A DNA stretch of 64,000 nt, taken from Escherichia coli (lineage in GTDB: Bacteria; Pseudomonadota; Gammaproteobacteria; Enterobacterales; Enterobacteriaceae). The notes below the pieces were generated by a model that saw only the letters and a program-made list of their open reading frames with translations, was not told where the DNA came from and did not search any database. The stretch lies in NCBI RefSeq assembly GCF_003018255.1, contig NZ_CP027440.1; one strand, written 5' to 3'. The position numbers and the translations under genes are program-made. Positions 25,900-46,663 of the stretch are shown one piece after another (position 1 is the stretch's first letter; each line of letters begins with the position of its first letter).

Positions 25900-26667
25900 A
25901 TGTGCGAATTGCTCGGGATGAGCGCCAACGTCCCTACCGATATCTGCTTTAGTTTCACCGGACTTGTACAGCGTGGTGGTGGAACCGGGCCACATAAAGA
26001 TGGCTGGGGCATTACCTTTTACGAAGGTAAAGGCTGTCGCACATTTAAAGATCCGCAACCCAGCTTTAATTCCCCCATCGCCAAACTTGTCCAGGACTAC
26101 CCGATAAAATCCTGTTCGGTGGTGGCTCATATTCGCCAGGCTAATCGGGGCGAGGTGGCGCTGGAAAATACTCACCCGTTTACCCGCGAGTTATGGGGGC
26201 GTAACTGGACTTATGCCCATAATGGACAACTGACGGGCTACAAATCACTGGAAACCGGCAACTTCCGCCCGGTCGGTGAAACCGATAGCGAAAAAGCCTT
26301 TTGCTGGCTCCTGCATAAATTAACGCAGCGTTACCCGCGCACACCGGGCAACATGGCGGCAGTGTTTAAATATATCGCCTCACTGGCGGATGAACTGCGG
26401 CAGAAGGGCGTTTTCAACATGCTGCTTTCTGACGGGCGCTATGTAATGGCGTATTGCTCGACTAATTTACACTGGATCACCCGCCGCGCGCCGTTTGGCG
26501 TGGCAACGTTGCTGGATCAGGATGTGGAAATCGACTTCAGCTCGCAGACCACACCGAATGATGTGGTCACGGTGATTGCGACACAGCCGCTGACGGGCAA
26601 TGAAACCTGGCAAAAGATTATGCCAGGTGAATGGCGCTTATTTTGCCTCGGGGAGCGTGTAGTTTGA
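25900..26667 (+). CDS. yafJ: class II glutamine amidotransferase-like protein
   Basis: 255 aa starting MCELLGM (N-terminal Cys after Met), GGAGG RBS. Confidence 0.8.
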
Positions 26668-27378
26668 TGCCAGTTGTGGCTGCACAACTTCGTGGCTTAA
26701 CGGCTTGCTGACCACGTAACGGCCATTGACCACAGAAACGGTCGGTGGCTTACGGGTTTGCTCAAAGTAGTCGTAGCCTGGCTTCAGTTGCTCCCAGAAG
26801 TCCTTAAAGTTGGAATATTTATGGCGCTTCATATTGGCGTCGGTCATACGGAACGGGTAAATACTCACTTGCACGCTCGGCTGACCAAACACCAGCGCAC
26901 CAGTAACGAACTGGAAGATCTCATCAATACCCTGATTGGTCATCGCGTAGCAGCCGATGGAAACACAATCGCCGTGAATCATCAGGTATTTCCCTTCATA
27001 ACCATGCGCACGGTCATAGGCGTTTGGGAATCCAATATTAATCGCTTTGTAGTAACGGCTGTCTGGTTTTAACTGATTACGCTGGACGCTATAAAACCCT
27101 TCCGGGCTTTTGAAATCGCCCTGACGCTGTTTTGGCCCTAAGCCGCCGGAATATTTACAGATTTTATAGCTGTCGAGCAGTTGATATTGCTCGCCCATTT
27201 TGACGTAGAGATCGAGCGTACGTTCTTCCTTGAAGATCTGGATGTAGACAGGGGATCCCATCAACTGCTGCTTATACTCTTTGCTCACTGGCGTGGTCGA
27301 GCTACTGCTGCCCAGCAAACCGGCAAACGAAACGCACGGGATCAACAACATCGCAAGAATTAATGCGATTTTACGCAT
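26638..27378 (-). CDS. yafK: L,D-transpeptidase family periplasmic protein
   Basis: 246 aa with signal peptide; YkuD-like core. Confidence 0.8.
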
Positions 27379-27680
27379 ACTGCTTATTCCTTGATAAAAC
27401 GGTTACACACGCCAGGACGGCAAAATGAATCCCAAATCGGAATAGTCTGGATTTGGAAGGCTCACATTATCACCAAAAGAGTTTTACGCAAGCCTGTCGG
27501 CGCAGGGTTTACAAATTTAGCACAGGGGCAGTTTTCAAGAGTCCGAAAAGCGCATGGATTGTAGATTTATTTCTTATTTCCTAAGATTATGAAACCGCAA
27601 TAGTAATATGCAAATAAGCAATTAATAATCCCGTTTACTCCTCCGGTCTTTTAAAATTCTCACCTTCATTCAGCTGGTTT

Positions 27681-28439
27681 ATGTCCTTCATGTCTTCGTT
27701 CTTGCACGGCAGATTTCTGCATCCAGGCGTGTTTTCGTTATGCGTTTTGCTCCCTTTACTCGCCAGCGCCACCACATCACATATCTCTTTCAGCTACGCC
27801 GCCCGCCAGCGGATGCAAAACCGTGCGCGTTTATTAAAACAGTACCAAACCCATCTGAAAAAGCAGGCCAGCTATATTGTGGAAGGCAATGCCAAAAGCA
27901 GAAGGGCGCTGCGCCAGCATAATCGGGAGCAGATAAAACAGCATCCAGAATGGTTTCCTGCGCCGCTCAAGGCGAGTGACAGACGCTGGCAGGCGCTGGC
28001 GGAGAACAACCATTTCTTAAGCAGCGACCATCTACACAACATCACCGAAGTGGCGATTCACCGCATGGAGCAGCAGCTTGGTAAGCCTTACGTCTGGGGC
28101 GGCACGCGGCCCGATCAAGGCTTCGACTGTAGCGGGTTGGTTTTTTATGCCTACAACAAGATCCTCGAGGCGAAGCTCCCGCGTACGGCCAATGAGATGT
28201 ATCACTACCATCGGGCAACGATTGTGGCGAATAACGACCTGCGCCGGGGAGATTTGCTGTTTTTCCATATTCACAGCCGTGAGATTGCCGATCATATGGG
28301 CGTGTATCTGGGAGACGGGCAATTTATCGAATCGCCACGCACGGGGGAAACCATACGGGTAAGCCGGTTAGCCGAACCTTTCTGGCAGGACCACTTTTTG
28401 GGCGCGCGCAGGATTTTGACGGAAGAGACGATTTTGTAG
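27681..28439 (+). CDS. yafL: NlpC/P60-family peptidoglycan endopeptidase
   Basis: 252 aa; signal peptide; conserved Cys (FDCSGLV) and His of NlpC/P60. Confidence 0.8.
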   Translation: MSFMSSFLHGRFLHPGVFSLCVLLPLLASATTSHISFSYAARQRMQNRARLLKQYQTHLKKQASYIVEGNAKSRRALRQHNREQIKQHPEWFPAPLKASDRRWQALAENNHFLSSDHLHNITEVAIHRMEQQLGKPYVWGGTRPDQGFDCSGLVFYAYNKILEAKLPRTANEMYHYHRATIVANNDLRRGDLLFFHIHSREIADHMGVYLGDGQFIESPRTGETIRVSRLAEPFWQDHFLGARRILTEETIL

Positions 28440-28440
28440 G

Positions 28441-28530
28441 GCGGATAGGGCGTTTACGCCGCATCCGGCGGTTATGCGCCGATGCCTGATGCGACGCTGG
28501 CACGTCTTATCATGCCTACAAGTCTGCGAA
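28441..28530. repeat. REP (repetitive extragenic palindromic) sequence upstream of rayT
   Basis: GCCGCATCCGGCG...GCCTGATGCGACGCTGGCACGTCTTATCATGCCTAC REP-type palindromic unit. Confidence 0.7.
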
Positions 28531-28614
28531 TATTTTGCGAGCCGCTTTCCCGATATAACACACCCTCATTGTCGACTTTTCCTTTTCTTCTTACCGTTGA
28601 GAAAAGGAGCCGCT

Positions 28615-29112
28615 ATGTCTGAATATCGTCGTTATTACATCAAGGGTGGAACATGGTTTTTCACGGTAAATTTACGGAATCGTCGAAGCCAACTTTTGAC
28701 CGCTCAGTTCCAGATGCTCCGTAACGCCATTATTAACGTTAAGCGAGACAGGCCTTTTGAAATTAACGCCTGGGTCGTTTTGCCGGAACATATGCACTGT
28801 ATCTGGACATTACCCGAAAGCGATGATGATTTTTCCTCTCGCTGGCGGGAGATTAAAAAACAGTTCACCCATGCTTGTGGATTGCAAAATATGTGGCAAC
28901 CGCGTTTTTGGGAGCATGCCATTCGCAATACCAAAGATTATCGTCATCATGTTGATTATATTTACATAAATCCAGTGAAACATGGCTGGGTAAAGCAGGT
29001 GAGTGATTGGCCATTCTCAACGTTCCATCGCGATGTCGCGAAAGGTTTATATCCCATCGATTGGGCGGGGGACGTAACGGATTTTAGTGCCGGGGAGCGT
29101 ATTATTTTATAA
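28615..29112 (+). CDS. rayT: REP-associated tyrosine transposase (HUH family)
   Basis: 165 aa from MSEYRRYYIKGG with AAAAGGAG RBS; HMH motif and conserved Tyr; flanked by REP units. Confidence 0.85.
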   Translation: MSEYRRYYIKGGTWFFTVNLRNRRSQLLTAQFQMLRNAIINVKRDRPFEINAWVVLPEHMHCIWTLPESDDDFSSRWREIKKQFTHACGLQNMWQPRFWEHAIRNTKDYRHHVDYIYINPVKHGWVKQVSDWPFSTFHRDVAKGLYPIDWAGDVTDFSAGERIIL

Positions 29113-29329
29113 TTGTGCGCCGGTGCCGGATGCGCTTACGCTTATCCGGCCTACAAATCTGTGCCTTAACGGTAGGCCGGATAAGGCGTTCACGCCGCAT
29201 CCGGCGGTTGTGCGCAGATGCCTGATGCGACGCTAGCGCGTCTTATCATGCCTACAAATCTATGCCTTAACGGTAGGCCGGATAAGGCGTTCACGCCGCA
29301 TCCGGCAATTGTGCACCGATGCCGGATTC
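29113..29329. repeat. cluster of REP sequences (BIME-like) downstream of rayT
   Basis: Several tandem REP units (…GCCGGATAAGGCGTTCACGCCGCATCCGGC…). Confidence 0.75.
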
Positions 29330-31799
<2,470 letters not shown>

Positions 31800-31835: not shown

Positions 31836-31855
31836 CACTGTATACTTTACCAGTG
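31836..31855 (+). promoter_or_regulatory. LexA (SOS) box of dinB
   Basis: CACTGTATACTTTACCAGTG, a CTGT-N8-ACAG palindrome about 15 bp upstream of the dinB start. Confidence 0.75.
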
Positions 31856-31869
31856 TTGAGAGGTGAGCA

Positions 31870-32925
31870 ATGCGTAAAATCATTCATGTGGATATGGACT
31901 GCTTTTTCGCAGCGGTGGAGATGCGCGATAATCCCGCCCTGCGCGATATCCCTATTGCTATTGGCGGCAGCCGCGAACGACGGGGGGTGATCAGCACCGC
32001 CAATTATCCCGCGCGTAAATTTGGCGTACGTAGCGCTATGCCGACAGGGATGGCGCTCAAATTATGCCCGCATCTCACCTTGCTTCCGGGGCGCTTTGAC
32101 GCCTACAAAGAAGCCTCAAATCATATCCGTGAAATCTTCTCGCGCTACACCTCGCGTATTGAACCGTTGTCACTGGATGAAGCCTATCTCGATGTCACTG
32201 ATAGCGTCCATTGCCACGGTTCTGCGACCCTCATCGCCCAGGAAATCCGCCAGACGATCTTCAACGAGCTGCAACTGACGGCATCTGCGGGCGTGGCACC
32301 AGTAAAGTTTCTCGCCAAAATCGCCTCCGACATGAATAAACCCAACGGTCAGTTTGTGATTACGCCGGCAGAAGTTCCGGCATTTCTGCAAACCTTACCG
32401 CTGGCAAAAATTCCCGGCGTCGGCAAAGTCTCGGCGGCAAAACTGGAAGCGATGGGGCTGCGGACCTGCGGTGATGTGCAAAAGTGTGATCTGGTGATTC
32501 TGCTTAAACGCTTTGGCAAATTTGGCCGCATTTTGTGGGAGCGTAGTCAGGGGATTGACGAGCGCGACGTTAACAGTGAACGGTTGCGAAAATCCGTCGG
32601 CGTGGAACGCACGATGGCGGAAGATATTCATCACTGGTCTGAATGTGAAGCGATTATCGAGCGGCTGTATCCTGAACTTGAACGCCGTCTGGCAAAGGTG
32701 AAACCTGATTTACTGATCGCCCGTCAGGGAGTGAAATTAAAGTTCGACGATTTTCAGCAAACTACTCAGGAGCACGTCTGGCCACGGCTGAATAAAGCTG
32801 ATCTAATCGCCACTGCGCGTAAAACCTGGGATGAACGCCGCGGCGGGCGCGGTGTGCGACTGGTGGGGCTGCATGTGACGTTACTTGACCCGCAAATGGA
32901 AAGACAACTGGTGTTGGGATTATGA
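31870..32925 (+). CDS. dinB: DNA polymerase IV (Y-family translesion polymerase)
   Basis: 351 aa, [22 protein letters not shown]... canonical DinB N-terminus. Confidence 0.95.
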
Positions 32926-33374
32926 ATAACATACAAATAAGAGACTATCAGCCTGGCGATTTTCAGCAACTATGCGCTATTTTCCTTAGAGCGGTTACGA
33001 TGACCGCCAGTCAGCATTATTCACCACAACAAATTGCCGCCTGGGCGCAGAATGACGAATCTCGCTGGAAGGAGAAACTCGCGAAATCACAAGTGCGGGT
33101 TGCAGTCATTAATGCAAAACTGGTCGGCTTTATTACCTGCGTTGAACACTATATCGATATGTTATTTGTTGACCCTGAATACACCCGCCGCGGGGTTGCC
33201 AGCGCCTTGTTAAAACCTTTGATTAAGTCTGAATCCGAACTTACGGTGGACGCCAGCATAACCGCAAAACCCTTTTTTGAACGTTATGGTTTTCAGACAG
33301 TTAAGCAGCAGCACGTTGAATGCAGGGGAGCGTGGTTTACTAATTTTTCTATGCGATATAAACCGCAACATTAA
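32922..33374 (+). CDS. yafP: GNAT-family acetyltransferase
   Basis: 150 aa; start overlaps the dinB stop (ATGA). Confidence 0.8.
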
Positions 33375-33988: not shown

Positions 33989-34246
33989 ATGGGCATTAAG
34001 CGAAAGTTGGTGCGGCACTATTCAGTGTATTTGTCCGAGTCCGTATCGGCCTCATCATGGGCGCAAAAACTGGTTTCTGGGCATGCTAACAAGCGGCTGG
34101 CGCGATTGCTGATTGCCTGGAAGCTGGAACAACAGCAACAGGAAAATAGCGCGGCGCTGAAATCGCAGCGGCGAATGTTCCATCACCAGATTGAACGTGG
34201 CAACCCGCGACGAACGTTCACAGGGATGGCTTTTATCGAAGGATAA
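33989..34246 (+). pseudogene. prfH: peptide chain release factor homolog fragment
   Basis: 85-aa fragment in the position of the K-12 prfH pseudogene next to ykfJ. Confidence 0.45.
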
Positions 34247-34302
34247 TGAAGGATGAAACTGCCGGAAGGCGATTAAACGCCATCCGGCAGCAAATCAAAT
34301 AA

Positions 34303-35760
34303 TTACTTCGCCGGAATTTCTTTCAGCAGTTCAGTCAGTAGTGTCCAGTAATGACCTACGCTTTCGATGTGAACTTGCTCATCCGGAGAGTGTGGACCGG
34401 TGATGGTTGGCCCGATAGAAACCATGTCCATTTCCGGATACGGTTTTTTGAACAGACCACATTCCAGGCCCGCGTGGATAATCTGGATGTTCGGCGTCTT
34501 GTTGAACAGGCGCTGATAGGTTTCACGTACCAGATGCATCACCGGAGAATTAGCGTCCGGCTGCCAGCCAGGATATGCGCCTTTCGCTTCGGTTTTCGCG
34601 CCAGCCAGTTTACCCAGCGAATCCAGCATGCTCACCACGTAGTCTTTACCGCTGTCGATCAGAGAACGGATCAGGCAGTGAATTTCTACGTTATTGTCAG
34701 TCATGGTCACCACACCGACGTTCAGGGAGGTTTCGACCACACCTTTTGCCACGTCGGAGTTGCGGATCACACCGTTCGGGGTGGCGTTCAGCAGACGAAT
34801 AAAGGTATCGCGAGATTTCGCAATCAGGGCAGCTTTATCGTTCGCAACAGAGTCCAGCAACAAGGCCAGATTTTTCTCTTTCTCTGCCAGCTCGTTTTTC
34901 AGGATCTCCTGATAGGTATTCACCAGAGATTTCAAAGCGTCGACTTTATCAGCTGCGACAGCAATGGTCGCAAAGGCTTCACGCGGGATGGCGTTACGCA
35001 GTGTGCCGCCGTTGAAATCGATAAGGCGCAGGTCCAGTTCTTCTGCATGACCCGCCAGGAAGCGCACCAGCAGTTTGTTGGCATTACCCAGGCCAACGTG
35101 GATTTCACCGCCGGAGTGACCGCCTTTCAGGCCTTTTAAGGTTAACTTGAAGGTTTCAAAGCCAGCTGGAACCGCTTCACGATCTAAATGCAGGTTGGAG
35201 GTGAAGTCGATACCTCCCGCACAACCCATGTAGATTTCACCTTCTTCTTCGGAGTCGGTGTTAATCAGAATATCAGCCTGCAACCAGTTGCTCTGTAAGC
35301 CAAAAGCACCGTCCATACCGGCTTCTTCGGTCATGGTCAGCAGCACTTCCAGCGGGCCGTGAACCACGTTTTCGTCAGCCAGAACCGCCAGTGCAGAGGC
35401 CATACCAATGCCGTTATCCGCACCCAGCGTGGTGCCGCGTGCTTTAACCCATTCGCCATCAATATAAGGCTGGATAGGATCTTTGGTGAAGTCATGCACG
35501 GTGTCGTTATTTTTTTGCGGCACCATATCGAGGTGGGCCTGCAAGACGACCGGTTTACGATTTTCCATACCTGCGGTAGCAGGTTTACGAATCAGGATAT
35601 TACCTACCTGATCGCGTTCGACATGGAAACCTTTCTCTTTTGCCCAACCAACAATGTATTCAGCGAGTTGCTCTTCATGATAGGACGGGTGAGGAATAGA
35701 ACAGATTTTGGCAAAAATATCCCACAGCGGCTGTGGAGATAATTGAGACAGTTCAGACAC
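34303..35760 (-). CDS. pepD: cytosol nonspecific dipeptidase (aminoacyl-histidine dipeptidase)
   Basis: 485 aa M20-family peptidase. Confidence 0.9.
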   Translation of the reverse strand: MSELSQLSPQPLWDIFAKICSIPHPSYHEEQLAEYIVGWAKEKGFHVERDQVGNILIRKPATAGMENRKPVVLQAHLDMVPQKNNDTVHDFTKDPIQPYIDGEWVKARGTTLGADNGIGMASALAVLADENVVHGPLEVLLTMTEEAGMDGAFGLQSNWLQADILINTDSEEEGEIYMGCAGGIDFTSNLHLDREAVPAGFETFKLTLKGLKGGHSGGEIHVGLGNANKLLVRFLAGHAEELDLRLIDFNGGTLRNAIPREAFATIAVAADKVDALKSLVNTYQEILKNELAEKEKNLALLLDSVANDKAALIAKSRDTFIRLLNATPNGVIRNSDVAKGVVETSLNVGVVTMTDNNVEIHCLIRSLIDSGKDYVVSMLDSLGKLAGAKTEAKGAYPGWQPDANSPVMHLVRETYQRLFNKTPNIQIIHAGLECGLFKKPYPEMDMVSIGPTITGPHSPDEQVHIESVGHYWTLLTELLKEIPAK

Positions 35761-36020
35761 GTTAAGTCTCCTTGTCGATCACCCGCAAAACAGTATTGCA
35801 GGTCACAGGGTTAGCAGAAAATGTTGTCAACACAAGACAGGCTTGCGAGATATGTTTGAGAATACCACTTTATCCCGCGTCAGGGAGAGGCAGTGCGTAA
35901 AAAGACGCGGACTCATGTGAAATACTGGTTTTTAGTGCGCCAGATCTCTATAATCTCGCGCAACCTATTTTCCCCTCGAACACTTTTTAAGCCGTAGATA
36001 AACAGGCTGGGACACTTCAC

Positions 36021-36479
36021 ATGAGCGAAAAATACATCGTCACCTGGGACATGTTGCAGATCCATGCACGTAAACTCGCAAGCCGACTGATGCCTTCTGA
36101 ACAATGGAAAGGCATTATTGCCGTAAGCCGTGGCGGTCTGGTACCGGGTGCGTTACTGGCGCGTGAACTGGGTATTCGTCATGTCGATACCGTTTGTATT
36201 TCCAGCTACGATCACGACAACCAGCGCGAGCTTAAAGTGCTGAAACGCGCAGAAGGCGATGGCGAAGGCTTCATCGTTATTGATGACCTGGTAGATACCG
36301 GTGGTACTGCGGTTGCGATTCGTGAAATGTATCCAAAAGCGCACTTTGTCACCATCTTCGCAAAACCGGCTGGTCGTCCGCTGGTTGATGATTATGTTGT
36401 TGATATCCCGCAAAATACCTGGATCGAACAGCCGTGGGATATGGGCGTCGTATTCGTGCCGCCAATCTCCGGTCGCTAA
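36021..36479 (+). CDS. gpt: xanthine-guanine phosphoribosyltransferase
   Basis: 152 aa, [23 protein letters not shown]... Confidence 0.95.
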
Positions 36480-36570
36480 TCTTTTCAACGCCTGGCACTG
36501 CCGGGCGTTGTTCTTTTTAACTTCAGGCGGGTTACAATAGTTTCCAGTAAGTATTCTGGAGGCTGCATCC

Positions 36571-37815
36571 ATGACACAGGCAAACCTGAGCGAAACCCTG
36601 TTCAAACCCCGCTTTAAACATCCTGAAACCTCGACGCTAGTCCGCCGCTTTAGTCACGGCGCACAACTGCCTGTGCAGTCGGCCCTTGATGGTAAAACCA
36701 TCCCTCACTGGTATCGCATGATTAACCGTCTGATGTGGATCTGGCGCGGCATTGACCCCCGTGAAATCCTCGACGTCCAGGCGCGTATTGTGATGAGCGA
36801 TGCCGAACGTACCGACGATGATTTATACGATACGGTGATTGGCTACCGCGGCGGCAACTGGATTTATGAGTGGGCTACCCAGGCGATGGTGTGGCAACAA
36901 AAAGCCTGTGCGGAAGAAGATCCGCAACTCAGCGGTCGACACTGGCTGCATGCGGCTACGTTGTACAACATTGCTGCCTATCCTCATCTGAAAGGAGATG
37001 ACCTGGCCGAGCAAGCGCAGGCTTTGTCAAACCGCGCCTATGAAGAGGCCGCTCAGCGTCTGCCGGGCACGATGCGGCAGATGGAGTTTACCGTACCCGG
37101 CGGTGCGCCCATCACCGGCTTTTTGCATATGCCGAAAGGCGATGGCCCGTTCCCGACAGTATTAATGTGTGGTGGTCTGGATGCGATGCAGACGGACTAT
37201 TACAGCCTGTATGAACGTTATTTTGCGCCGCGCGGCATTGCTATGCTGACTATTGATATGCCGTCGGTGGGCTTTTCTTCAAAATGGAAGCTCACCCAGG
37301 ACTCCAGCCTGTTGCATCAGCACGTTTTAAAGGCGCTGCCTAACGTACCGTGGGTGGATCACACTCGCGTCGCGGCCTTTGGTTTCCGTTTCGGCGCTAA
37401 CGTTGCCGTGCGTCTGGCATACCTTGAATCGCCGCGTCTGAAAGTGGTTGCCTGTCTTGGTCCGGTAGTTCATACCCTGTTGAGTGATTTTAAGTGCCAG
37501 CAACAGGTGCCGGAAATGTATCTTGACGTTCTGGCCAGTCGTTTAGGGATGCATGATGCTTCCGATGAAGCGTTGCGAGTGGAGTTGAATCGCTATTCAT
37601 TAAAAGTGCAAGGATTGCTGGGACGTCGCTGCCCAACGCCAATGTTATCAGGCTACTGGAAGAACGATCCGTTCAGCCCGGAAGAGGACTCACGCTTAAT
37701 CACGTCGTCATCTGCTGACGGTAAATTATTAGAGATCCCATTTAACCCGGTGTATCGGAATTTTGACAAAGGCCTTCAGGAAATCACAGACTGGATCGAA
37801 AAACGTTTGTGTTAA
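36571..37815 (+). CDS. frsA: esterase FrsA (fermentation/respiration switch protein)
   Basis: 414 aa alpha/beta hydrolase. Confidence 0.9.
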
Positions 37816-38274
<459 letters not shown>

Positions 38275-38312
38275 ATGAAATGTGCCGGATGCATCACATC
38301 CGGCAATATTCA

Positions 38313-39368
38313 TTAAAACTGATACGTCATCCCAACCGCGACAATATCATCATTATTAATATTTAATTTGTTATCGCTTTCCAGTTGGTTGATTTTATAA
38401 TCAACAAACGCTGACATATTTTTGTTGAAATAATACGTAGCACCAACATCGACATAATTGACCAGATCTTCATCACCGATGCCCTCAATATCTTTCCCTT
38501 TCGATAAGACATAACCCAGCGATGGACGCAGACCAAAGTCAAACTGGTATTGAGCGACCGCTTCAAAGTTCTGCGTCTTATTGGCAAAGCCGCCAGTTAT
38601 TGGCGTCATTTTGCGTGTTTCAGAATAGAAAGTTGCCAGATAAATATTATTGGCATCGTATTTCAGACCTGTTGCCCATGCTTCTGCACGCTTGCCTGTG
38701 CCACGGCTTTGCAGGTTCTGCTCGTTGGTGCGATCAGAGTTGGTATAGGCTCCACTGATGGCGAAATCGCTGCCACCAAAGTCATATGTCAATGACGTGC
38801 CGAAGCCATCGCCGTTTTGCTTTTTAACGTCGCGGTTTTCGTTTTTCCCTTGATATTGCAGGGTTAAGTTCAGGCCATCGATAACGCCGAAGAAGTCGGT
38901 GTTCCGATACGTCGCCAGACCGCTGGCGCGTTTGGTCATAAAGTTGTCGGTCTGCGCCGAGGAGTCGCCACCAAATTCCGGGAACATATCGGTCCAGGCT
39001 TCCACGTCATACAACGCGCCCAGGTTACGACCATAATCGAAAGAACCCAAATCTTTATATTTCAACCCGGCAAAAGCGAGACGTGTTTTTTGCTGTGCAG
39101 TATCACTCTCTGCTTTATTACCGGCAAACTCTGCTTCCCAGCGACCATAACCGGTCAATTGATCGTTAATTTGTGTTTCGCCTTTAAAACCAAAACGGAT
39201 ATAACTCTGGTCGCCATCTTTACTGTCATTATCACTCATATAATGCATGGCTTTAACTTTGCCATAGACATCCAGTTTATTACCGTCTTTGTTATATATT
39301 TCTGCGGCCTGTACGGATACAGATGCCACAATGCCCATCACCACTAATGACAGAGTGCTCTTTTTCAT
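38313..39368 (-). CDS. phoE: outer membrane phosphoporin PhoE
   Basis: 351 aa from MKKSTL; signal peptide; C-terminal YQF typical of porins. Confidence 0.9.
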
Positions 39369-39447
39369 TTTCATTCCTGATTTTAATTAACGCGCGAATA
39401 TTCAGCGGGAGAGTCCCGTTGAAAACAGGAAAGTTTTTAACCTGAGA

Positions 39448-39467
39448 TTGTTAAAGATATATTACAG
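39448..39467 (-). promoter_or_regulatory. candidate Pho box upstream of phoE
   Basis: Minus-strand CTGTAATATATCTTTAACAA about 80 bp upstream of the phoE start, resembling the PhoB-binding consensus CTGTCATA-A-T-CTGTCA. Confidence 0.45.
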
Positions 39468-39656
39468 ATTAATAATATTCTTAAAATGTGGTAATTTATT
39501 AAATCTGTAATAAAAGCGTAAACAACTGCCGCTACGCTTGCTGATCCCGCGCAACAAAACGCCATGCTTTGCTCGCAGATGGTTGGCAACCGACGACAGT
39601 CCTGCTAAAACGTTCGTTTGATATCATTTTTTCCTAAAATTGAATGGCAGAGAATC

Positions 39657-40760
39657 ATGAGTGACAGCCAGACGCTGGTGGTAAAACTCGGCACCAGTGT
39701 GCTAACAGGCGGATCGCGCCGCCTGAACCGTGCCCATATCGTTGAACTTGTTCGCCAGTGCGCGCAGTTACATGCCGCCGGGCATCGGATTGTTATTGTG
39801 ACGTCGGGTGCGATTGCCGCCGGACGTGAGCACCTGGGGTACCCGGAATTGCCAGCGACTATCGCTTCAAAACAGCTGCTGGCGGCGGTAGGGCAGAGTC
39901 GACTGATTCAACTGTGGGAACAGCTGTTTTCAATTTACGGCATTCATGTCGGGCAGATGTTGCTGACCCGTGCTGATATGGAAGATCGTGAACGCTTCCT
40001 GAACGCCCGCGATACCCTGCGTGCGTTGCTCGATAACAATATCGTTCCGGTAATTAATGAGAACGATGCTGTCGCTACGGCAGAGATTAAGGTCGGTGAT
40101 AACGATAACCTTTCTGCGCTGGCGGCGATTCTGGCGGGTGCCGATAAACTGTTGCTGCTGACCGATCAAAAAGGTTTGTATACCGCTGACCCGCGCAGCA
40201 ATCCGCAGGCAGAACTGATTAAAGATGTGTACGGCATTGATGACGCACTGCGCGCGATTGCCGGTGATAGCGTTTCAGGCCTCGGAACTGGCGGTATGAG
40301 CACCAAATTGCAGGCCGCGGACGTGGCTTGCCGTGCGGGTATCGACACCATTATTGCCGCGGGCAGCAAGCCGGGCGTTATTGGTGATGTGATGGAAGGC
40401 ATTTCCGTCGGTACGCTGTTCCATGCCCAGGCGACTCCGCTTGAAAACCGTAAACGCTGGATTTTCGGTGCGCCGCCGGCGGGTGAAATCACGGTAGATG
40501 AAGGGGCAACCGCCGCCATTCTTGAACGCGGCAGCTCCCTGTTGCCGAAAGGCATTAAGAGCGTAACTGGCAATTTCTCGCGTGGTGAAGTCATCCGCAT
40601 TTGCAACCTCGAAGGTCGCGATATCGCCCACGGCGTCAGTCGTTACAACAGCGATGCATTACGCCGCATTGCCGGACACCACTCGCAAGAAATTGATGCA
40701 ATACTGGGATATGAATATGGCCCGGTTGCCGTTCACCGTGATGACATGATTACCCGTTAA
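39657..40760 (+). CDS. proB: glutamate 5-kinase
   Basis: 367 aa from [15 protein letters not shown]. Confidence 0.95.
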
Positions 40761-40771
40761 GGAGCTGGCCG

Positions 40772-42025
40772 ATGCTGGAACAAATGGGCATTGCCGCAAA
40801 GCAAGCCTCGTATAAATTAGCGCAACTCTCCAGCCGCGAAAAAAATCGTGTGCTGGAAAAAATCGCCGATGAACTGGAAGCACAAAGCGAAATCATCCTC
40901 AACGCTAACGCCCAGGATGTTGCTGACGCGCGTGCCAATGGCCTTAGCGAAGCGATGCTTGACCGTCTGGCACTGACGCCCGCACGGCTGAAAGGCATCG
41001 CCGACGATGTGCGTCAGGTGTGTAATCTCGCCGATCCGGTGGGGCAGGTAATCGATGGCGGCGTACTGGACAGTGGTCTGCGTCTGGAGCGCCGTCGCGT
41101 GCCGCTGGGGGTGATTGGCGTGATTTATGAAGCGCGCCCGAACGTGACGGTAGATGTCGCTTCGCTGTGCCTGAAAACAGGTAACGCGGTGATCCTGCGC
41201 GGCGGCAAAGAAACGTGTCGCACTAACGCTGCAACGGTGGCGGTGATTCAGGACGCCCTGAAATCCTGCAGCTTACCGGCGGGTGCCGTGCAGGCGATTG
41301 ATAATCCTGACCGCGCGCTGGTCAGTGAAATGCTGCGTATGGATAAATACATCGACATGCTGATCCCGCGCGGTGGCGCTGGCCTGCATAAACTGTGCCG
41401 CGAACAGTCGACGATCCCGGTGATCACAGGTGGTATAGGCGTATGCCATATTTACGTTGATGAAAGTGCAGAGATCGCTGAAGCCCTGAAAGTGATCGTC
41501 AACGCGAAAACTCAGCGACCGAGCACATGTAATACGGTTGAAACGTTGCTGGTGAATAAAAACATCGCCGATAGTTTCCTGCCCGCATTAAGCAAACAAA
41601 TGGCGGAAAGTGGCGTGACGTTACACGCTGATGCAGGTGCACTGGCGCAGTTGCAGACAGGCCCCGCGAAGGTGGTTGCTGTTAAAACCGAAGAGTATGA
41701 CGATGAGTTTCTGTCATTAGATTTGAACGTCAAAATCGTCAGCGATCTTGACGATGCCATCGCCCATATTCGTGAACACGGCACGCAACACTCCGATGCG
41801 ATCCTGACCCGCGATATGCGCAACGCCCAGCGTTTTGTTAACGAAGTAGATTCCTCCGCTGTTTACGTTAACGCCTCTACGCGTTTTACCGACGGCGGCC
41901 AGTTTGGACTGGGTGCGGAAGTGGCGGTAAGCACACAAAAACTCCACTCGCGTGGCCCAATGGGGCTGGAAGCACTGACCACTTACAAGTGGATCGGCAT
42001 TGGTGATTACACCATTCGTGCGTAA
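40772..42025 (+). CDS. proA: gamma-glutamyl phosphate reductase
   Basis: 417 aa immediately downstream of proB. Confidence 0.95.
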
Positions 42026-42139
42026 ATAAAACCGGGTGATGCAAAAGTAGCCATTTGATTCACAAGGCCATTGACGCATCGCCCGGTTAGTTTTAACCTT
42101 GTCCACCGTGATTCACGTTCGTGAACATGTCCTTTCAGG

Positions 42140-42215
42140 GCCGATATAGCTCAGTTGGTAGAGCAGCGCATTCGTAATGCGAAGGTCGGAGGTTCGACTC
42201 CTCTTATCGGCACCA
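42140..42215 (+). tRNA. thrW: tRNA-Thr (anticodon CGU)
   Basis: 76-nt sequence GCCGATATAGCTCAGTTGGTAGAGCAGCGCATTCGTAATGCG…CACCA with cloverleaf features, anticodon loop TTCGTAA, 3' CCA. Confidence 0.9.
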
Positions 42216-42835
42216 TTTAAATCAATAAGTTACACATCACTAATACCTTCCTTATTTTTTATTGGGACAGATTTGGGACCGATGGGTTCAGGATCGAATC
42301 TATTTACCGTGCGTGTTCGGTAAGGTGATTAGGTGCGAGGTGAGCATATCGACGAACCATTTCGAGAGTTTCCCATCCGCTCATTTTTAAGTGCAAGCAG
42401 GGAAACACCGGACCAAACCAATCAGCTGTTCGAAAATGGCAAGCGGATTAATATGCCATGGCGGCTTTGAGCCGCACGCATGGGGTGTGGCAAGCCTGAT
42501 GGATGTTACTGTGCTTGTGGTGGCGTCTTTGCTGGTCTGGTTGTTGGTTAATCGCGAAAATCATTATGCCAGAGGAATACCACAGGACGTTCAGGTTTTG
42601 CATAAAAAAGCCCACCATTAAGGTGGGCAAAAGGAATGATTTATATTCTCTGAGAGAAACATTACATTTCTCCTTGTCACTTCTAACATGAAAATATGGA
42701 GAAATAATGGAGCTTATATTAATTGGCGATTAGGTAACCATGTGGTTATACAAAACAATACAGTTCTTTACATTTGCCTTGTTTTATGAATACTCCTAAA
42801 GAGGTGTATAACATAATGGTACAAGCAGGGTAGAT

Positions 42836-43450
42836 ATGAATATATTTGAACAAACTCCACCAAACCGCAGACGTTATGGTCTTGCTGCATTCATTGGGCT
42901 GATTGCTGGCGTTGTTTCCGCATTTGTTAAGTGGGGGGCAGAAGTTCCATTGCCACCACGTAGTCCGGTTGATATGTTTAATGCAGCGTGTGGTCCGGAA
43001 TCATTAATCAGGGCTGCAGGCCAAATTGATTGCTCCCGTAACTTTCTCAATCCTCCGTACATTTTTCTTCGGGATTGGTTGGGACTGACAGATCCAAATT
43101 CGGCTGTTTATACCTTCGCCGGGCATGTCTTTAACTGGGTTGGTGTAACGCACATAATCTTTTCGATAGTTTTTGCCGTTGGTTACTGTGTGGTCGCCGA
43201 AGTATTTCCGAAAATTAAACTTTGGCAGGGCTTACTGGCAGGTGCTTTAGCGCAACTTTTTGTTCATATGATTTCATTCCCTCTCATGGGACTTACGCCA
43301 CCTCTCTTTGATCTTCCGTGGTATGAGAATGTCTCTGAAATTTTTGGACATTTAGTCTGGTTCTGGTCTATTGAAATTATTCGCAGAGATTTACGAAACA
43401 GAATTACCCATGAGCCAGATCCTGAGATCCCTTTAGGCTCAAATAGATAA
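42836..43450 (+). CDS. yagU: inner membrane protein (DUF1440 family)
   Basis: 204 aa with several hydrophobic segments; position matches K-12 yagU. Confidence 0.75.
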
Positions 43451-43698
43451 TGCTTTGAATGATAAAAATGGCGCAAATATAGCGCCATTTTTATAGGTTA
43501 AAAACGTTGCTTTTCATATTCTGATGCGGACAGTCAGTGATCATATCGCGCTACTTCAGGATGATGTAGATCCGGAGAACGCTACAGAAGAAGAGGCATT
43601 GTTGCTGGAAAATGGAAGAAGTTTCAGGTTTTGTTGTCCCTGAAAAACGAAGCCCCGCTATTACAGCTGGCGGGGCAATGCAATTAATTATTGTATAT

Positions 43699-44028
43699 TT
43701 ATAACGGTGTTAGCCCGTATTTAGCTCTTGCACGATTGCAAGCCTCATTGACTTCTCCGTTCTCACCAGACATGGCGAATTCTCTGCATGTGGACGATCG
43801 ATTTTCATATATCGTGCAGCAGGCATTTTTGCCCGGTGTTCCTGCAAGGGCAATACATCGGGGATTTTTCTGATTAGTACCGCTCATGCATCGGTGAAAA
43901 GGGGATATTTGTTCAGTGAGCCTGGCGGGAATGGTACCGCCAGCATCGTCAGCTTCGGCCCAGTAAAAAGAGACGCGGAAAAATGCACAACAGGCACCAC
44001 ACGTCATGCATGGATTCAGATTGCTCAT
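43699..44028 (-). CDS. ykgJ: Cys-rich ferredoxin-like protein
   Basis: 109 aa with CxxCxxCC and further Cys motifs. Confidence 0.75.
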
Positions 44029-44340
44029 AATTCACCAGTACAGCTATAAATCGTAAAGAGAACTGCGGTACGTCGTATGCAGGGATGTATCGCGGTTGGC
44101 TGGTGTACTTTCGATAGTGTGAGTATTGAATGATTTCCAGCCGTTACCGATTTTACGTCCTAATTAGTGAAGAAACCACTCGTTAGCAGGCCGCCTGGTA
44201 CCTTTCCGTGTCTCCTGAACACTGTGGTGTGCATATGAGAAAGCTCATCGTTACAGGTGACATTGACGATCGCTTCCACATCATTTAAACGATTTTTGAG
44301 TCTCTGAGGTGGAATTCTTCCCTCGTCCGATGGATAAGTC

Positions 44341-45051
44341 TTAGTCCGCCGAAGGGGGCTTAGCCGGACAGGAATCGCTAATCTTAATGAATTTGTCGTT
44401 ATAGACCAGATAATGATTCCCCGGCTGACGTAACTCAGGCTGATGAACCACGTCTCCCGGACGTAGATACCAGGCATCGCCTTCCTCTTCGGTCGAATCA
44501 CATCCTGGTTTAATCAGTAGCTTAAACCACGTGTTGCCGGTGTTACTTACCGTTCCGGTCACCTGATCGAAGGACCATTTAAACTGAACCTGACGTGGTC
44601 GTACTACCAGAATGGTATCCATCACCACCACCGGCTCCGTGCTGACCTCACCGCCGGTTGGGCTGCGTTTTGTCAGGTTACGAGTGGGGACCTCGCGAAA
44701 TGAGACCCGGTAGTAGCGCTCGCGGTTATCCCGTGGACCATGATAGTAAAATTTAAAATACTCGCTCTCACCAGTCTGCAACGCCAGCTGGCGGGGGGCG
44801 AAAAGTAGTTCACCATCCACCGGTCGGGTGCGCAATTCACTGCTGCCCGGGCTATCAATAGCACTGATGGCAATACGGTATATCCGCGCGCTTTTGTTGT
44901 TATTCACGACACGTTTGCTGACAAAGTCAGTCTCGGACGGCAGTGAAAAAGTCAGATTGCCGACCGAAATCGCCTGTGTCAAAGGTGCCGCCAGCATACA
45001 GACCACTGTCAGCAGGGCCTTAGTTAATGTTACGCCACGTCGCCTGAACAT
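44341..45051 (-). CDS. ecpE: E. coli common pilus chaperone EcpE
   Basis: About 236 aa from internal MFRRRG start with signal peptide; last gene of ecp operon. Confidence 0.75.
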
Positions 45052-46663
45052 GAATCTCTCCTGAAGCGCTGACTTCGCCAAACCAGCCGTTATCATCTAC
45101 CGTACGCAGAGAAATGGCGTTATCCATTGGAATCGAAAATTTGACTGTGGTCTTATCCATCTGCCCCACTTCGCCAGAGATATCAGTCCACGGTGTGGTC
45201 AACCACAGCGCATCGGTCATATCCCGCCAGCTATCATCGCACCCGGCATCGTAGGTTTTTGTAGCTCCGTTGCGGGTAATAAAGGAAAGCGTCGCCGGGA
45301 ACGGTACTTTCGCCTTACCGTCATCGGAGCTGAAGACACAATAGGAGCGCCCGCCAATCACCTGCGCGGGTCCGGTCACCTTGATCAGCACTTCGTCGGC
45401 AGCTGTTTTACCGCTGGTGGTTACGATATAGCCGAAATCGAGTGCCGACTCGCCGCTGCCAACATATCCCTCCCGCGACGGTGTCTGAGTATATTCATCG
45501 GAGATAATACTGATGCTGAAATCACGGGGTTTGATAATCAGCGTGTTGGAGGTAGAAAATTCATACCAGCCAGACTCCGGTGATGTGGTGTTCTGAAAGC
45601 GAAAGTTGAATAGATCTTTGGTGTTGATATCGCTGATCCCGAGGTTCACCATCTGTTTAAAGAAGTTGCTCGAGAAGAAAACATAGATCGAGTCTGCGCT
45701 CTTCATCTCGTTGAAGGTGTAGTAATAGGCAGTATTGCTCACCGGTTTCCATGAACTGCCATTCAGACTGAACTGCATATCGTACGCCCCGACGGCCGAG
45801 GCTAACGACGAGTTGGCGATCGCCGGGAATATATGGATTGAGGTGTTGCTGAGTCCGTTTGTTTGCAGGGTATAGTTAACCATCTTACAACTTAATCCTG
45901 AACGGCTGCCGATGGTTTGCGTCCGGCAGTCGGCGTTCCCTTCGCCCAGAGTCGGTACTCCGTCGCTGTTGATAAATACTTCCGCCAGCGAGTGGGTATT
46001 TATCAACCGCAGATTTGCTGCTTTCGTATGGGTGACGTTGCGAACATACCAGTTGCCGGAGGCCTGATCCTTACAGCGTGCGCCGCTGCTGGCGTCATAG
46101 TTCACAGAGGTCTGGCAGGCATTGATGGTCATTGTAAAGCTGCTGCCGACGGGCATTTGTTGCAGATACTGGTAAAACGCGTCTGACAACATGCCGTGCA
46201 TCCATTTCGCGCCGCCGCTGGTCACCGTCGCGCCATAAAATCCACTGGCGTCGGTGGTTTGCGGCAGGATAAGACTGGTGGTCATATTACACCCTGCGTA
46301 CCAGTTGATGCAGCGCAAGCCAGTTAAAGGAGATGAAACTGGTGAATTTTCCAGCCACATATCAAACTTCCAGTTGGTATAAAGGCCGGTGTTGTAACCG
46401 TTATCAATGTAGCCGAGGCTTTGCTGATAGATGGTTCCTGAACCATTGTATTTTAAACCGGTCCAGCGGTTGGCACCGGTCAGGCGCGGATCCAGCGCCC
46501 CGCCAGGAGTGACGAAAAAGTTGTCGTCTGAGTTGTTTTCGACAAACACAAACTCGCGTGCCGGAGCATCCGCCCAGGTTGTTTTGCTCACTGCCGCTCT
46601 GAGCGCGGTTGCAGGCCAGATTAGCGCAAAGATTATCATCGCTATCAGTAGGTTAACTCTCAT
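45020..46663 (-). CDS. ecpD: E. coli common pilus tip adhesin EcpD
   Basis: 547 aa with signal peptide. Confidence 0.85.

Follow-up and report, generated by a model that had tools for sequence, protein, structure and literature searches.

The yafK–yafL spacer of an Escherichia coli strain lacks dinJ-yafQ and very probably represents the ancestral, unoccupied allele

The dinJ-yafQ toxin–antitoxin (TA) module, which in K-12 separates yafK from yafL, is absent without remnant from the E. coli DNA analysed here. Comparison with outgroups makes it very probable that the locus is the ancestral, unoccupied yafK–yafL allele and that the module was not deleted from a K-12-like one. The analysis concerns a stretch of 64,000 nucleotides of contig NZ_CP027440.1 (RefSeq assembly GCF_003018255.1), called the window below, in which the genes follow the E. 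coli chromosomal order fadE, gmhA/lpcA, yafJ, yafK/dpaA, yafL, rayT, lfhA remnant, lafU, dinB, and yafP. The original prediction placed dinJ-yafQ between yafK and yafL in K-12, and this is the order seen in MG1655 (yafK-yafQ-dinJ-yafL), where the gap between yafK and yafL measures 906 bp. It also gave the window a spacer of about 300 bp, from 27379 to 27680. The spacer is indeed short, but its right end had been set by an ATG at 27681 that is not conserved: E. albertii, Escherichia sp. E1V33, SCPM-O-B-8794, and O145:H28 have ATA in its place. All four keep the ATG at 27690, which is the RefSeq start; with this start, the spacer is 311 bp long (27379–27689). RefSeq annotates no gene inside the empty spacer of the matching E. 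coli genomes. The features of the locus are the following:

26638–27378, minus strand: yafK/dpaA (peptidoglycan meso-DAP protein amidase), the left flank; from the list of open reading frames, a protein identical to K-12 YafK, and the RefSeq annotation of the collinear genome DETEC-S792.
27379–27518, no strand: part of the spacer next to yafK, common to both alleles; the left block of K-12 homology ends at 27518 (L001 2446).
27519–27753, no strand: the 235 bp peculiar to the empty allele; blastn finds nothing homologous in K-12 from one junction to the other.
27577–27632, no strand: AT-rich block, almost invariant in Escherichia empty alleles; from the alignment of eight such alleles.
27690–28439, plus strand: yafL (NlpC/P60, C40 peptidase), the right flank; RefSeq start in DETEC-S792.
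27690–27752, plus strand: codons 1–21 of yafL, inside the allele-specific segment; homology with K-12 resumes at 27754.

The absence of dinJ-yafQ, read originally from the letters of the sequence, is confirmed by homology searches over the whole window (tblastn with word size 2, blastn with word size 7), which returned chance matches alone. K-12 DinJ had a best E-value of 0.75 in the 64 kb, from short chance matches, and left no remnant in 27379–27753. The best E-value of YafQ over the same 64 kb was 2.1, and an 11-residue chance match at 27523–27555 had an E-value of 78. When the 830-bp K-12 cassette was searched with blastn against the 64-kb window, the best E-value was only 0.15. The spacer was also said to hold no open reading frame. 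This holds in substance: three mechanical ones (57, 43, and 46 aa) can be drawn in it, and none is conserved, as stops or frameshifts break them in related alleles. No site resembling a LexA box (CTGT-N8-ACAG, one mismatch allowed) occurs in 27379–27753, in a search that recovered the dinB box at 31838 as a positive control. Scans of the spacer gave no match in Rfam, nothing meaningful as a terminator, and no repeat pointing to the scar of a mobile element. Hence, the features by which the module would be recognised (an open reading frame for a DinJ/RelB antitoxin, another for a YafQ/RelE toxin, and a LexA-box promoter) are all lacking in the window.

The empty spacer is frequent among complete E. 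coli genomes. With the 302-nt query 27379–27680 and a required coverage of at least 80%, it was found in 2082 of 5426 genomes (approximately 38%), including ST131, strain 042, and O145:H28. Where dinJ-yafQ is present, the match is limited to nucleotides 1–140 of this query. The 830-bp K-12 cassette is present in 3340 of the 5426, among them K-12, BL21, and O157:H7, and at least 80% of it is carried by 3321. Because the two classes together account for 5422 of the 5426 genomes, the locus has essentially two alleles. Few cassettes are decayed or deleted: only 19 of 3340 fall below 80% coverage. These counts also bear on the trivial explanation that an assembly collapse or misjoin shortened the spacer of a strain that really has the module. 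We found nothing in favour of such an artefact and consider its probability negligible: this 302-bp spacer recurs over its full length and at 99%–100% identity in many genomes that were finished independently (coverage is at least 80% in 2082), the counts of cassette and empty-allele genomes are complementary, and the genes on either side are intact and in the order of DETEC-S792.

The empty alleles of other E. coli are very close to that of the window. The spacers of FDAARGOS_536 and others are 100% identical to it, and ST131 strain 4224 and GPEC1356 are 99.6%–100% identical over the allele-specific 235 bp, with the same gene order and junctions; the empty allele of strain 042, unlike that of the window, has an 11-bp deletion in the spacer. 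We take ST131 and strain 042 to belong to phylogroups B2 and D, respectively. The closest complete genomes are JNE23-011, with 100% identity over 12 kb, and DETEC-S792, with 98.4%–99.6% over the aligned blocks, and no other complete genome reaches 99% identity to the window. The closest named genome that we recognise as belonging to phylogroup B2 is APEC O1, which is 98.3% identical.

Aligning the spacer with K-12, as the original prediction had suggested, places the junctions and shows that the segment that differs is 27519–27753 and not the whole spacer. On the left, the homology takes in yafK and the adjoining 140 nt of the spacer (99% identical to K-12), ends at 27518, and has 313 of 317 positions identical. 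On the right, it restarts at 27754, in codon 22 of yafL, so that the polymorphic segment reaches 64 nt into this gene. Between the junctions lie 235 bp in the window and 830 bp in K-12; the K-12 block consists of yafQ and dinJ with their promoter, together with another version of the yafL upstream region and 21 codons. The two segments align no better than shuffled sequences (z of −0.2 for the non-coding part and of −0.3 for the 21 codons). Since they are unalignable and extend to codon 22, the alleles differ in the upstream region of yafL and in its signal peptide, which is MSSFLHGRFLHPGVFSLCVLLPLLASA in the window versus MSLPSIPSFVLSGLLLICLPFSSFASA in K-12. The start of mature YafL (TTSHISFSYAARQ) is the same in both.

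Two simpler accounts of this difference were tried and rejected. The 235 bp could have been a diverged homologue of the K-12 dinJ–yafL intergenic region. The parts of a global alignment scored a z of about 0 against shuffles, and we put down to composition the z of 2.3 obtained when the whole segment was aligned to that region. The other account was a clean insertion with duplication of a CAAAT target, as hinted by MAFFT. It was discarded because the DNA on the right side of dinJ is not the ancestral one. Judged from the alignments, the K-12 allele is a replacement block rather than a clean insertion, and its right junction is located inside yafL.

To polarise the difference between the alleles, we scanned the GTDB species representatives for YafK, which resulted in 80 loci; E. 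fergusonii and the E. coli type strain are not among them. In E. albertii, Escherichia sp. E1V33, 'E. coli' SCPM-O-B-8794, nine Citrobacter representatives, and Phytobacter massiliensis, yafL lies beside yafK and neither DinJ nor YafQ is present (GTDB treats E1V33 and SCPM-O-B-8794 as species separate from E. coli). A dinJ-yafQ pair beside yafK occurs in none of the 76 species representatives outside Escherichia. Among the 80 loci, the cassette is found only in Escherichia sp. MOD1-EC7003, with the same junctions as in K-12 and 96.9% identity to it (96.4% for yafK). This similarity implies that the derived allele is old or was exchanged between species. The 235 bp of the window are 78%–81% identical to E. 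albertii, E1V33, and SCPM-O-B-8794, and their alignment with E. albertii has a z of 42 against shuffles. The window and these three genomes also share the signal-peptide pattern ..R(F/L)L...(V)FSL..LLPLLAS, and the K-12-type signal peptide is seen only alongside the cassette, in K-12 and MOD1-EC7003. Removing dinJ-yafQ from an allele of the K-12 type would not bring back the ancestral 235 bp, so the empty allele would be the original one and the K-12 allele the derived one. The polarity thus defined rests on outgroups rather than on a dated tree, and the polymorphism may be old or the result of exchange between species.

The module described as missing is thus absent, and this should not be taken to mean that it was deleted: the window retains 235 bp of seemingly ancestral sequence no longer present in the K-12 allele. 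Secondary loss would require that a K-12-type ancestor lost dinJ-yafQ, either by deletion or by allelic replacement from a strain with the empty allele. A simple deletion is excluded by this same retained sequence. Replacement is harder to discard because it leaves no trace and one window cannot separate it from vertical inheritance. Recombination is frequent at this locus, as exemplified by the O145:H28 empty allele, which is 98.1% identical to that of E1V33 and 86.9% to that of the window. Mature yafL, at 93.6%–94.8% identity to other E. coli, suggests a mosaic region, and the flanks permit exchange, with yafK 98%–100% identical across both allele classes. Yet partial cassettes are rare (19 of 3340), and the published reconstruction by González-Alba and colleagues (PMC6896753) counts yafQ-dinJ among independent acquisitions, with the module in all genomes of the EB1A lineage and, in the FGB2 lineage, only in phylogroup F; it has gains in EB1A and phylogroup F and no loss elsewhere. 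We therefore consider secondary loss improbable, and retention of the ancestral allele remains our strongly preferred reading.

The yafL 5' region of the K-12-specific segment does not look like arbitrary DNA. Of this region, 48 nt match C. amalonaticus (81% identity, E-value 2e-6), and in alignments this 5' DNA is 45%–53% identical to Citrobacter and 38%–42% to the Escherichia empty alleles. The signal peptide that it encodes has equal length and conserved positions (M-S, P, L-x-G-L-L, C, and F-S). We infer that the K-12 cassette entered together with a xenologous yafL 5' end, from a diverged donor that already had dinJ-yafQ beside a yafL homologue. Under the preferred reading, the strain would have inherited the form of the locus that preceded the cassette, either vertically or by ordinary homologous recombination within the species. 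The cassette would have entered a part of the Escherichia population, where the 830-bp block displaced the 235 bp of spacer and the first 21 codons of yafL. This block would comprise yafQ, dinJ, the region of their LexA-box promoter, and a yafL upstream region with the start of the signal peptide, homologous yet of foreign origin. Most likely, it would have come from a diverged donor through recombination that crossed over in the spacer near yafK and again within yafL. YafQ-family toxins are found on 1185 plasmids of many genera, which fits a mobile family. Passages of Fraikin et al. (PMC7167474) and of PMC5120126, both citing earlier work, describe horizontal transfer and integration between core genes for endoribonuclease-type systems such as dinJ-yafQ.

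What the allele means for the flanking genes depends on the regulatory sites of the 235 bp. The AT-rich block at 27577–27632 probably holds a divergent yafK/yafL promoter or a regulatory site. Inside this block, at 27614–27586 on the minus strand, a sigma-70-like site directed towards yafK (TTTGCA-17-CATAAT) is predicted, purely as a match to the consensus. An AT-rich motif (TTAAT..TAATAA..TTATTAA) is found approximately 60–110 nt upstream of yafL in Escherichia, Citrobacter, and Phytobacter, and the K-12-specific segment has it as well; this motif is a candidate for the yafL promoter or for the site of a regulator. For K-12, yafK has been listed as a gene that lacks its own promoter and is probably co-transcribed with dinJ-yafQ (PMC5120126), and a binding peak of SrsR is reported between dinJ and yafL at position 246,530 (PMC9181523). 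The site of this peak is part of the K-12-specific segment, and nothing in the window corresponds to it. The strain would be without the ribosome-dependent mRNA interferase YafQ and the repressor DinJ (functions taken from the K-12 annotation and from the literature, PMC7167474). Its yafK/dpaA and yafL would probably run from the native divergent promoter region and not by read-through from the dinJ promoter, and its YafL would bear the native Escherichia signal peptide.

These differences allow a more far-reaching proposal, which we regard as rather unlikely: that the locus is a system of two haplotypes, in which the TA cassette travels with a foreign yafL promoter and signal peptide and displaces the native region that probably drives yafK/dpaA, with both haplotypes also present in other Escherichia species-level lineages. 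If this were true, the alleles could differ in the regulation or export of two peptidoglycan-remodelling genes, and they might be kept by selection and not by TA addiction alone. Comparisons or deletions of dinJ-yafQ may in any case confound the effects of the TA module with an altered expression of the neighbouring cell-wall genes, because the K-12 cassette also swapped the 5' end of yafL and the region upstream of yafK/dpaA. A concern about polar effects in such comparisons was raised earlier by Ramisetty et al. (PMC5120126).

The empty yafK–yafL site is, in itself, an ordinary, common, and already known polymorphism. Type II TA modules are unevenly spread over E. coli strains and phylogroups, according to a passage of Fraikin et al. 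(PMC7167474) that cites Fiedoruk 2015 and Ramisetty and Santhosh 2016. The K-12 dinJ-yafQ locus (b0226-b0225) has the same chromosomal site and flanking genes as the window, to which it is homologous in the 140 nt proximal to yafK and in yafL from codon 22 onwards. It differs in having dinJ, yafQ, a LexA-box promoter, and another yafL upstream region and signal peptide, none of which is in the window. K-12 should thus not be taken as the default for this locus: the TA-free form is very probably the older one, and over a third of the sequenced E. coli have it. The UTI89-type arrangement of dinB-yafP without yafNO is comparable in that a TA module is present or absent between core genes, but it involves a different module at a site 4 kb away. 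There, the absence of yafNO leaves dinB-yafP as an undisturbed operon (Fraikin et al., PMC7167474). The yafN-yafO pair is also absent from the window: dinB (31870–32925) overlaps yafP (32922–33374), and YafN and YafO have no tblastn match in the window.

Variation around the locus extends beyond this pair. In O145:H28 RM13516, a hicAB TA pair lies downstream of yafL (L087 3360–3987, approximately 28500–29200 in the window), in the place where the window has rayT; GPEC1356 has neither hicAB nor rayT downstream of yafL. The few kb around yafL look like a hotspot for small accessory modules. The O145:H28 empty allele for which the identities were given above (L087 2242–2670) looks like the product of introgression across Escherichia species at yafK–yafL. 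The yafL coding part of the window is a rarer allele: it is 99.7% identical to DETEC-S792 and 93.6%–94.8% to ST131, 042, and K-12. Over 27754–29112, the figures are 93.6%–94.8% for mature yafL against K-12, ST131, 042, and GPEC1356, and approximately 92%–93% for rayT where it is present; the neighbouring yafK is at 97%–100%. Such divergence of yafL–rayT is unusually high within a species and suggests recombination or imported alleles.

Further from yafL, positions 1–21000 of the window contain a type VI secretion cluster (tssK to tssB, hcp, and vgrG) followed by an Rhs core and orphan fragments. Three copies of ISEc1 (ISAs1 family), of about 1.3 kb each, lie at approximately 16.0, 17.8, and 19.7 kb. 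At the corresponding position, K-12 has no type VI cluster, Rhs fragments, or ISEc1 copies. At approximately 29229–31799, a truncated lfhA (flhA-like, with its N-terminus missing) abuts lafU, which is the deletion scar of the Flag-2 lateral flagellar system as in K-12; in ST131 strain 4224, the place of this lfhA remnant is taken by a full-length flhA. At approximately 42140–43650, proA and the tRNA-Thr gene are followed by no more than an integrase remnant, after which come yagU, ykgJ, and the ecp operon. The CP4-6 prophage, which occupies this tRNA-Thr (thrW) site in K-12, is absent. When 34200–46200 was used as a query, the match of most genomes ended approximately 8 kb in. Finally, REP-type palindromic repeats (GCCGGATGCGGCG.. 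/ TGCCTGATGCGACGCTG..) are found on both sides of rayT, at 28440–28560 and 29113–29330, as expected for the locus of a REP-associated tyrosine transposase.
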